DNA of 16,036 nt. Source: a virus. Positions within the stretch are counted from its first letter, which is position 1, and each line of letters begins with the position of its first letter. The notes under the pieces are model-generated. The model was not told the DNA's origin. It searched no databases and worked only from the letters and a program-made list of their open reading frames with translations. Made by a program: the position numbers and the translations under genes. The DNA is taken from IMG/VR virus record IMGVR_UViG_3300012985_000282. One strand, written 5' to 3'. Below are positions 8,499 through 8,726 of this stretch, piece after piece.

Positions 8499-8726
8499 CT
8501 ATTTTGAAGAATTGTTAATCGGTTTGGGACAGATCATCCAGCGATCTCCTGCCTCCCAGACCAGTTTTCCGGTGACGCCTGTGTCCCACAAGACGCGGAC
8601 CGATCCTAGGTCGTCGACGTCCTCGACGAGGCCCTCCGTCCCGGGCCTGACTGACGAAAAAACGTCGTGACAAATGACTAGCTTGACTCGCTTGCCGACG
8701 AGCGTTTTTGAGGCTTTTCGTTCCAT
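8499..8726 (-). CDS. DUF4314-domain small protein
   Basis: 75 aa: MERKASKTLVGKRVKLVICHDVFSSVRPGTEGLVEDVDDLGSVRVLWDTGVTGKLVWEAGDRWMICPKP. This matches the DUF4314 signature (yPaGTRIrLIhMDDvqAPPdGTlGTVrgVDDtGsImVsWDnGssL), a domain typical of conjugative elements and ArdC-type antirestriction proteins. Confidence 0.75.
   Translation of the reverse strand: MERKASKTLVGKRVKLVICHDVFSSVRPGTEGLVEDVDDLGSVRVLWDTGVTGKLVWEAGDRWMICPKPINNSSK

Follow-up and report, generated by a model that had tools for sequence, protein, structure and literature searches.

A stand-alone DUF4314 gene directly upstream of a major vault protein homologue in a putative very large environmental phage

[quoted passage not shown] With a probability of about 70% for the reading as a whole, we regard this gene as an accessory gene of a huge phage that is expressed in a leaderless unit together with MVP and encodes a binding adaptor, and as neither a marker of conjugation nor the importer of MVP. 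Observations on the domain, on coding constraint, on the viral context, on a partial conservation of the gene pair and on base composition carry this reading. DUF4314 was already known as a Pfam family, and phage and bacterial MVP homologues were on record. What is new is modest, namely the assignment of a DUF4314 subfamily to huge environmental phages of one clade, its repeated occurrence just before MVP and a description at the level of the fold. The coordinates of the features are collected in Table 1.

Table 1 Features in and around the DUF4314-MVP locus. Positions refer to the window, except for those with the prefix L009, which refer to that locus.
Feature	Position	Strand	Evidence or remark
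DUF4314 gene, stand-alone single domain, 75 aa	8499..8726	-	ORF, Pfam, PHROGs, pN/pS, AF2
Nearest array member (PGD...LVI...G.LGW), directly upstream of DUF4314	8770..9000	-	Array HMM E 8.7e-10
Promoter-like motif TGAAAA-N16-TAGAGT	8735..8762	-	Ends 7-8 nt before the DUF4314 ATG
Second motif copy	11877-11905	-	Intergenic gap, just before gene start
DUF4314-MVP spacer, 57 bp, GGAG RBS before MVP ATG	8442..8498	-
MVP (major vault protein) homologue, 898 aa	5745..8441	-	MVP_shoulder 3e-30, Vault_3 4e-9, Band_7 2e-5
Terminator-like hairpin, 13-bp stem, directly after MVP stop	5697..5726	-
SPFH/Band_7 protein, 617 aa from ATG at 5659	3806..5659	-	Band_7 4.5e-28, phrog_200, public 617-aa call
Terminator-like hairpin, 13-bp stem, directly after SPFH stop	3755..3787	-
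61-aa membrane-like protein and 105-aa conserved protein (g062)	3219..3718	-	g062 = 3219-3536
Methionine aminopeptidase	L009:14679-15425
IF-1/eIF-1A-like fragment at contig end	L009:20233-20258 onward

Identity of the DUF4314 gene

The genes of the window form a train on the minus strand. The DUF4314 gene is an ATG-started open reading frame of 75 codons that fills its interval on this strand exactly. Its product matched PF14192 (DUF4314) in Pfam with an E-value of 2.9e-10 and a score of 40.4 bits, against a gathering cut-off of 27 bits, with residues 10-58 aligned to positions 14-62 of the 69 in the profile. The domain call of the sequence-only reading, which had been made from the letters of the window, was thereby borne out. 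The precomputed Pfam label of the public record for the 75-aa protein is likewise DUF4314, and the protein also matched phrog_3782 and phrog_2431, both PHROGs families without an assigned function. In Pfam, nothing besides DUF4314 was found in the protein at E<=0.1, and there is no ArdC or metalloprotease region. This sets it apart from the ArdC-like antirestriction proteins, to which the sequence-only reading ascribes DUF4314 domains at the N-terminus and with which it may share that small domain, as it is 75 aa long and contains DUF4314 only, and its close relatives are stand-alone proteins too. It is thus a plain member of the existing Pfam family DUF4314, a family that is not mentioned in the literature we searched.

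Comparison with the orthologue in L026 (68% identical) gave a pN of 0.23 against a saturated pS of 0.78; the 75-aa frame is therefore under purifying selection and is a real gene. In an alignment with relatives, G11, R13, L16, G29, G32, G41, V45, W47, G50, L55 and D61 show little or no variation, and the conserved positions of a second DUF4314 alignment overlap mostly with these. The protein has the same length (60-100 aa) as the stand-alone proteins of PF14192, phrog_3782 and phrog_2431, sits like them among the small genes of mobile elements and phages, and has the motifs G-K/R-R-V-x-L, P-G-x-E-G-x-V, W-D-x-G and G-D-R-W in common with them. The subfamily of the window differs by an additional N-terminal extension, R-K-x-S-x-x-L-V-G, and, in several of its lineages, by its place directly upstream of MVP, which is not seen at the 80 best IMG/VR loci (MVP lies within 5 kb at 0 of these 80 DUF4314 loci).

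The gene that follows is, on its Pfam matches, an MVP homologue. The shoulder and Vault_3 domains score above the Pfam thresholds (MVP_shoulder, 105.1 bits against a cut-off of 25; Vault_3, 36.9 against 28.8), while the classic Vault repeat stays below its own (14.6 against 27). The sequence-only reading was therefore right to place a DUF4314 gene directly ahead of MVP, with 57 bp between the two.

Distribution of DUF4314 in phages and plasmids

The sequence-only reading had taken DUF4314 as a sign of an integrative and conjugative element (ICE) or a conjugative plasmid, and had proposed that the DUF4314-MVP-SPFH core came by horizontal transfer into the surrounding array of paralogs. We first consider the distribution of the domain. 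In a tblastn search, the window protein matched 23 phage records of GenBank and 5 plasmid records, the plasmid database being three times larger than the phage database. The phage records include Streptococcus Javan prophages, Bacillus SP-15, Lysinibacillus myophages, Ruminococcus and Coprococcus phages, and the 'uncultured phage' LR756502 (642 kb); in the Streptococcus phage Javan51, the DUF4314-containing gene lies between methyltransferases and the terminase. BFVD also holds DUF4314 proteins from Salinivibrio phage CW02 and Microbacterium phage Hendrix. The plasmid records speak for the conjugative proposal, since all five are from Staphylococcus and three of the five are conjugative, with a stand-alone DUF4314 gene on a Staphylococcus plasmid typed MOBP and MPF_T. 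Thus, the domain does occur on conjugative plasmids, but it is not diagnostic of conjugation, and for this query it is commoner in phages.

Wider searches gave a similar picture of small, single-domain proteins. Relatives were found at 215 IMG/VR loci, and HMMER (E<=1e-3) retrieved 223 relatives from 1.84 billion representatives, nearly all of them stand-alone and 60-100 aa long. A profile search of 5.8 billion proteins gave 1,883 matches, and in the 120 listed DUF4314 is the sole Pfam domain. More distant relatives are located within runs of small ORFan genes (L028, L031), and one is found in an island beside a serine recombinase (L030), a second point in favour of the conjugative proposal. 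Two long multi-repeat proteins (P0003 and P0020) were set aside, as they look like repeat domains of secreted proteins and match residues 26-69 only.

The replicon

The window is 99.9% identical, with 12 differing bases, to the ENA contig ERZ27311764 k141_3586583 (40,764 bp), and close variants of this contig are present in other ENA, JGI and Logan samples. We analyzed record positions 4770-40288, amounting to 35.5 kb and 97 called genes; the ends (1-4769 and 40289-40764, ~5.2 kb) lie outside this part. Its Pfam content comprises a KaiC/RadA-like ATPase, T4_Y16D, DUF4314, MVP, Band_7, a segment similar to the N-terminus of Gp23, a methionine aminopeptidase (MetAP), a Metallophos phosphatase and an IF-1/eIF-1A-like fragment. 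No relaxase was found among the precomputed Pfam hits of all genes in the 35.5 kb or in our own scans, and the same 35.5 kb contain no gene for a type IV secretion system (T4SS) or coupling protein and none for an integrase, a recombinase or a plasmid replication initiator (Rep). The sole P-loop protein is the RadA/KaiC-like one, for which the match to TrwB_AAD_bind (E 0.012) is below the cut-off. The search of the flanking contig for relaxase, T4SS, integrase and plasmid replication genes thus gives the conjugative proposal nothing in these 35.5 kb.

The relatives of the contig point to phages instead, and the T4_Y16D, Gp23-like, NinI-like phosphatase, phrog_4301 and RadA-like ATPase families that it carries are typical of phages. 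In PHROGs, the contig matches a NinI-like phosphatase family and phrog_4301, and a tblastn search with the phrog_4301 protein found GenBank phage relatives only in XacN1 (385 kb), Xoo-sp13 (309 kb) and RM378 (130 kb), of which XacN1 and Xoo-sp13 are jumbo phages. Among GenBank phage records, MVP found homologues, more distant ones, only in LR756500, LR756501 and LR756503, which are 'uncultured phage' assemblies of 462-735 kb; LR756501-504 have been termed megaphages (PMC9723777). Further MVP homologues are encoded on 15 IMG/VR viral contigs (up to 359 kb, 37-70% identity) and at 50 JGI metagenome loci. The backbone of the contig shows synteny with viral contigs of IMG/VR that reach 309 kb, and it has the order RadA-like ATPase, g010, MVP, MetAP, g080-like gene and phosphatase in common with the closer relatives. 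In these relatives, GroEL, AAA ATPases and an ADP-ribosylglycohydrolase are found nearby, and L026 carries a homing-endonuclease-like gene (Endonuclease_7/NUMOD3). One of the JGI loci lies on the contig Ga0222634_1000003 (L159; 570,750 bp), which encodes a distant MVP of 41% identity and is a further candidate megaphage.

The 35.5 kb of this fragmentary contig contain no capsid, terminase or portal gene, so the phage identity rests on synteny, on the homologues and on how IMG/VR and GenBank label these sequences. Judged by these, the replicon appears to be a very large uncultivated tailed phage, and neither a conjugative element nor a plain chromosome. Only a 46-residue segment, similar to the N-terminus of Gp23, occurs there, in a 118-aa protein. 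A small set of paralogs that start with MSQLxTY is encoded at L009:12204-13164 (three genes, 97-118 aa) and L009:10805-11284; one of these paralogs matches the first 46 positions of the profile of the T4 major capsid protein Gp23 (E 2e-10). On such small proteins, the Gp23-like segment may be capsid-targeting or propeptide-like.

A tRNA-like element was also noted outside the window, at L005:4480-4577 on the plus strand (approximately 9249-9346 of the record), in the gap of 306 bp that follows the RadA-like ATPase gene. Its acceptor stem is 7 bp long (GGGGCGC/GCGCUCC), its T-arm is canonical (CUCGG-UUCGAAU-CCGAG), and the element is conserved in L038 and L013. ARAGORN made no call for it, and the Rfam tRNA-Sec model scored 25.7 bits (E 0.0048) against a gathering score of 47.

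Phage homologues of MVP have been described in the gut Caudoviricetes ctOa11 and ct2Ri15, in whose genomes no TEP1 or vPARP homologue was found; different neighbors of MVP are reported in these two phages, and no DUF4314 (bioRxiv 10.1101/2023.11.10.566534). An MVP of ~800-900 aa in a tailed-phage genome is what the window has in common with these phages and with LR756500, LR756501 and LR756503. The clade of the window differs from ctOa11 and ct2Ri15 in that it is environmental, has contigs of up to 309 kb, and carries SPFH and a large paralog array beside MVP. With the MVP locus assigned to a clade of environmental phages of very large size, a 'eukaryote-like' MVP in this setting needs no conjugative element to explain it, and the context proposed by the sequence-only reading is corrected accordingly.

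The paralog array and the origin of the core

The genes of the array occupy 8770-16033 and 1532-3222 of the window, on the minus strand, and continue on the contig. The 35.5 kb hold at least 52 such paralogs of 66-127 aa, compared with 0-12 in relatives, and many of their start codons overlap the preceding stop codon. Pfam assigned the array to no family and gave stray weak matches, including one to SH3_2 (0.0076) in 1 of 28 members. The array is broken up by genes of other kinds, among them a T4_Y16D-like gene (10024-10311), a Cys-rich 68-aa gene (9200-9406) and a 67-aa gene. DUF4314 had been placed at the exact boundary between array and MVP. Its upstream neighbor is indeed an array member, but interruptions lie nearby and the array resumes at 2980-3222, downstream of the core and g062. 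Array genes therefore lie on both sides of the core, which is embedded among them and does not mark their end.

The company that DUF4314 keeps raises the possibility that it is merely a diverged array member with an incidental match to Pfam. It resembles the array genes in size, strand, position and composition, with a GC content of 0.544 and a GC3 of 0.64, both inside the array range (0.551 +/- 0.045 and 0.67 +/- 0.08), and DUF4314 models as an SH3-like barrel while one array member has the weak SH3_2 match mentioned above. The profiles, however, do not recognize one another: the array HMM misses DUF4314 at E<0.01, the DUF4314 HMM matches no array gene, and a profile-profile comparison with hhalign gave a probability of 4.3%. 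The motifs differ as well, being G-R-R-V-R-L...W-D-x-G...G-D-R-W in DUF4314 and P-G-D...L-V-I...G-x-L-G-W in the array. We consider an origin of DUF4314 from the array highly improbable.

Composition also bears on the proposed import of the core. The GC content of MVP and SPFH is ~5 points above that of the array, which could be taken as a trace of transfer. Their GC and GC3 values (0.607/0.775 for MVP and 0.59/0.72 for SPFH) are, however, like those of the other backbone genes (0.58/0.72), and DUF4314 has the composition of the array, so that the comparison of core and array lends import no support. In L033 and L038, which have few array genes, the RadA-like ATPase and g010 are followed by a few small genes and then by DUF4314, MVP and g062. 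Since the same backbone genes flank the core in these array-poor relatives, the most economical explanation is that the core is older and the array has grown on either side of it. There is no sign of a recently imported core.

Taken with the plasmid records and the island beside the serine recombinase, the high GC of MVP and SPFH is what the conjugative proposal has in its favor. Against it stand the 35.5 kb without conjugation, integration or plasmid replication genes, the synteny with huge viral contigs, the composition, the unchanged flanks of the core in relatives, the lack of an ArdC region in the protein, and a promoter-like motif ahead of DUF4314 of the type found before other genes of the contig (see below). 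An ICE or conjugative plasmid that delivered the core is, in our estimation, most improbable. The conjugative interpretation is largely refuted over the 35.5 kb and should be dropped; what survives is that the DNA is no ordinary chromosome, and 'mobile element' applies to it in the sense of a virus only.

Expression signals

No Shine-Dalgarno sequence precedes DUF4314. Upstream of the gene, we found the promoter-like motif TGAAAA-N16-TAGAGT, which also precedes the orthologues of L026, L033 and L038, with its spacing kept, despite saturated synonymous sites. The full motif was observed twice in the window, against 0.00 expected. A shorter form, TGnTAGRRT, was met again in further gaps between genes of the contig (L009, L005), 6-10 nt ahead of ATG codons, giving a recurrent motif class of TGAAAA-N15-18-TAGRRT or TGnTAGRRT before ATG codons. 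This class may represent the phage's own extended -10 type of promoter, yielding leaderless mRNAs. Because the motif ends so close to the ATG and no Shine-Dalgarno sequence is present, we infer that the DUF4314 transcript is leaderless or nearly so. That the motif stands before DUF4314 as it does before other genes of the contig makes a recent foreign origin less likely.

The spacer between DUF4314 and MVP contains no terminator-like hairpin on the minus strand. A sigma-70-like sequence, TTAACA-16-TACGAT (8518-8491), overlaps the start of the spacer; the match is weak, and it was given little weight because a single promoter hit is the chance count. The ribosome-binding site ahead of MVP, the hairpin-free spacer and the strong hairpins after MVP and SPFH suggest a putative DUF4314-MVP(-SPFH) transcription unit with attenuation after MVP. 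For SPFH, the ATG at 5659 is the likelier start, since a TTG start at 5728 would overlap the hairpin that follows MVP.

Pairing of DUF4314 and MVP in relatives

Four or five diverged lineages of the phage clade have DUF4314 paired with MVP. Besides the window lineage, MVP is immediately preceded by DUF4314 in L019, on the 22 contigs of the P0153 group and on the 21 contigs of the P0152 group; by locus, the lineages with the pair are the L033 and L038 groups together with L019 and the lineage of the window. The gap between the two genes is 57-96 bp across the paired lineages. P0152 and P0153 are the best two matches in the profile search of 5.8 billion proteins, with 48-52% identity to the DUF4314 of the window, and each lies 81-85 bp upstream of an 885-902-aa MVP on contigs from several sequencing runs.

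Such recurrence invites the proposal that DUF4314 is a dedicated partner of MVP, acting as a cargo, an assembly factor or a regulator of a vault-like shell, and thus a viral counterpart of a minor vault protein within a functional two-gene module. An adjacency that is kept where DUF4314 is only 38-52% and MVP 64-71% identical to the proteins of the window argues for this, as do the conserved promoter-like motif upstream of DUF4314 with the short spacer into MVP, and the MVP adjacency of both best profile matches. The proposal is weakened by how readily the two genes occur apart. Among the first 15 IMG/VR MVP loci, DUF4314 is directly upstream only in L019, and in L011 it lies 5.3 kb upstream; the pair is missing at ~25 further MVP loci in the clade of 60-80% identity and at all loci of the ~40% clade, including L027 (from the GenBank phage genome LR756500), and most MVP loci of the same clade have no DUF4314 within 4-10 kb. 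Conversely, L175 (inside an array) and L031 carry close DUF4314 relatives with no MVP beside them. In L026 (Logan SRR26386618), MVP is cut to its last 138 codons (L026:6216-6632, 57% identity to residues 766-898), while the upstream region is the same and DUF4314 and SPFH are intact; DUF4314 has here outlasted a natural deletion of MVP. Finally, the DUF4314-bearing lineages are scattered in a neighbor-joining tree of MVP and form no clade. The pairing thus appears recurrent but dispensable both ways, and an old, often-lost neighbor fits these patterns better than an obligate two-part machine. A dedicated partnership is unlikely, though likelier than the other alternatives weighed here.

Fold and likely function

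A search by sequence detected no solved homologue of DUF4314. The AlphaFold2 model of the protein has five strands (pLDDT 75), from which we infer a five-stranded beta-barrel of ~65 residues with an SH3/Tudor/KOW-like fold. Small barrels of the SH3-like kind to which it can be likened are the MIB/HERC2 and CPH domains, Tudor, the KOW domains of Spt5/NusG, the SH3 inserts of helicases, and YorP of SPbeta. The protein contains no catalytic motifs, and PADLOC gave no defense match for DUF4314, MVP, SPFH or their neighbors. A role in defense or counter-defense was rejected, with PADLOC negative and nothing usable from NCBIfam. With no solved relative, no catalytic motif and no defense match, a binding adaptor is the best-supported mechanism. 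The protein is probably a small adaptor that binds protein or nucleic acid and is made together with MVP.

We therefore return to the reading given at the outset, in which the promoter, the co-transcription, the fold and the binding function are predicted elements. The DUF4314 gene would count among the accessory genes of a very large, uncultivated tailed phage and would have resided for long in the variable region of the clade. It would form the promoter-proximal cistron of a short unit, followed 57 bp on by MVP with its strong ribosome-binding site, then by the hairpin and SPFH. The adaptor may help or modulate a putative vault-like shell without being tied to it. In a bolder version, DUF4314 would be an accessory subunit of a vault-like particle, the first such subunit in a prokaryote or virus, translated from the same leaderless transcript and binding or loading the MVP shell; we give this less credence still than the dedicated partnership discussed above. 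With the eukaryotic minor vault proteins (TEP1 and the MINT domain of PARP4), the protein has in common only the idea of a possible binder that is made together with MVP. No similarity to them was found, and DUF4314 is modeled as a 75-aa barrel. If the pairing is functional, the locus offers a simple two-gene system in which to ask what vault-like shells do in phage infection; as the evidence stands, DUF4314 is one more small phage accessory gene.

RNA searches and genes downstream of MVP

An RNA partner such as a vault RNA was also considered. Rfam gave no family at gathering score in the window or the contig, and no tRNA was called in a tRNA search; with both searches negative, this candidate was rejected.

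Downstream, g062 has orthologues of 70-75% identity in L033 and L038, where they directly follow MVP; in the window, g062 is parted from MVP by SPFH and the gene for the 61-aa membrane-like protein. The g062 protein has no family match and no solved homologue detectable by sequence. By eye, it may resemble the small MazG-like pyrophosphatases.
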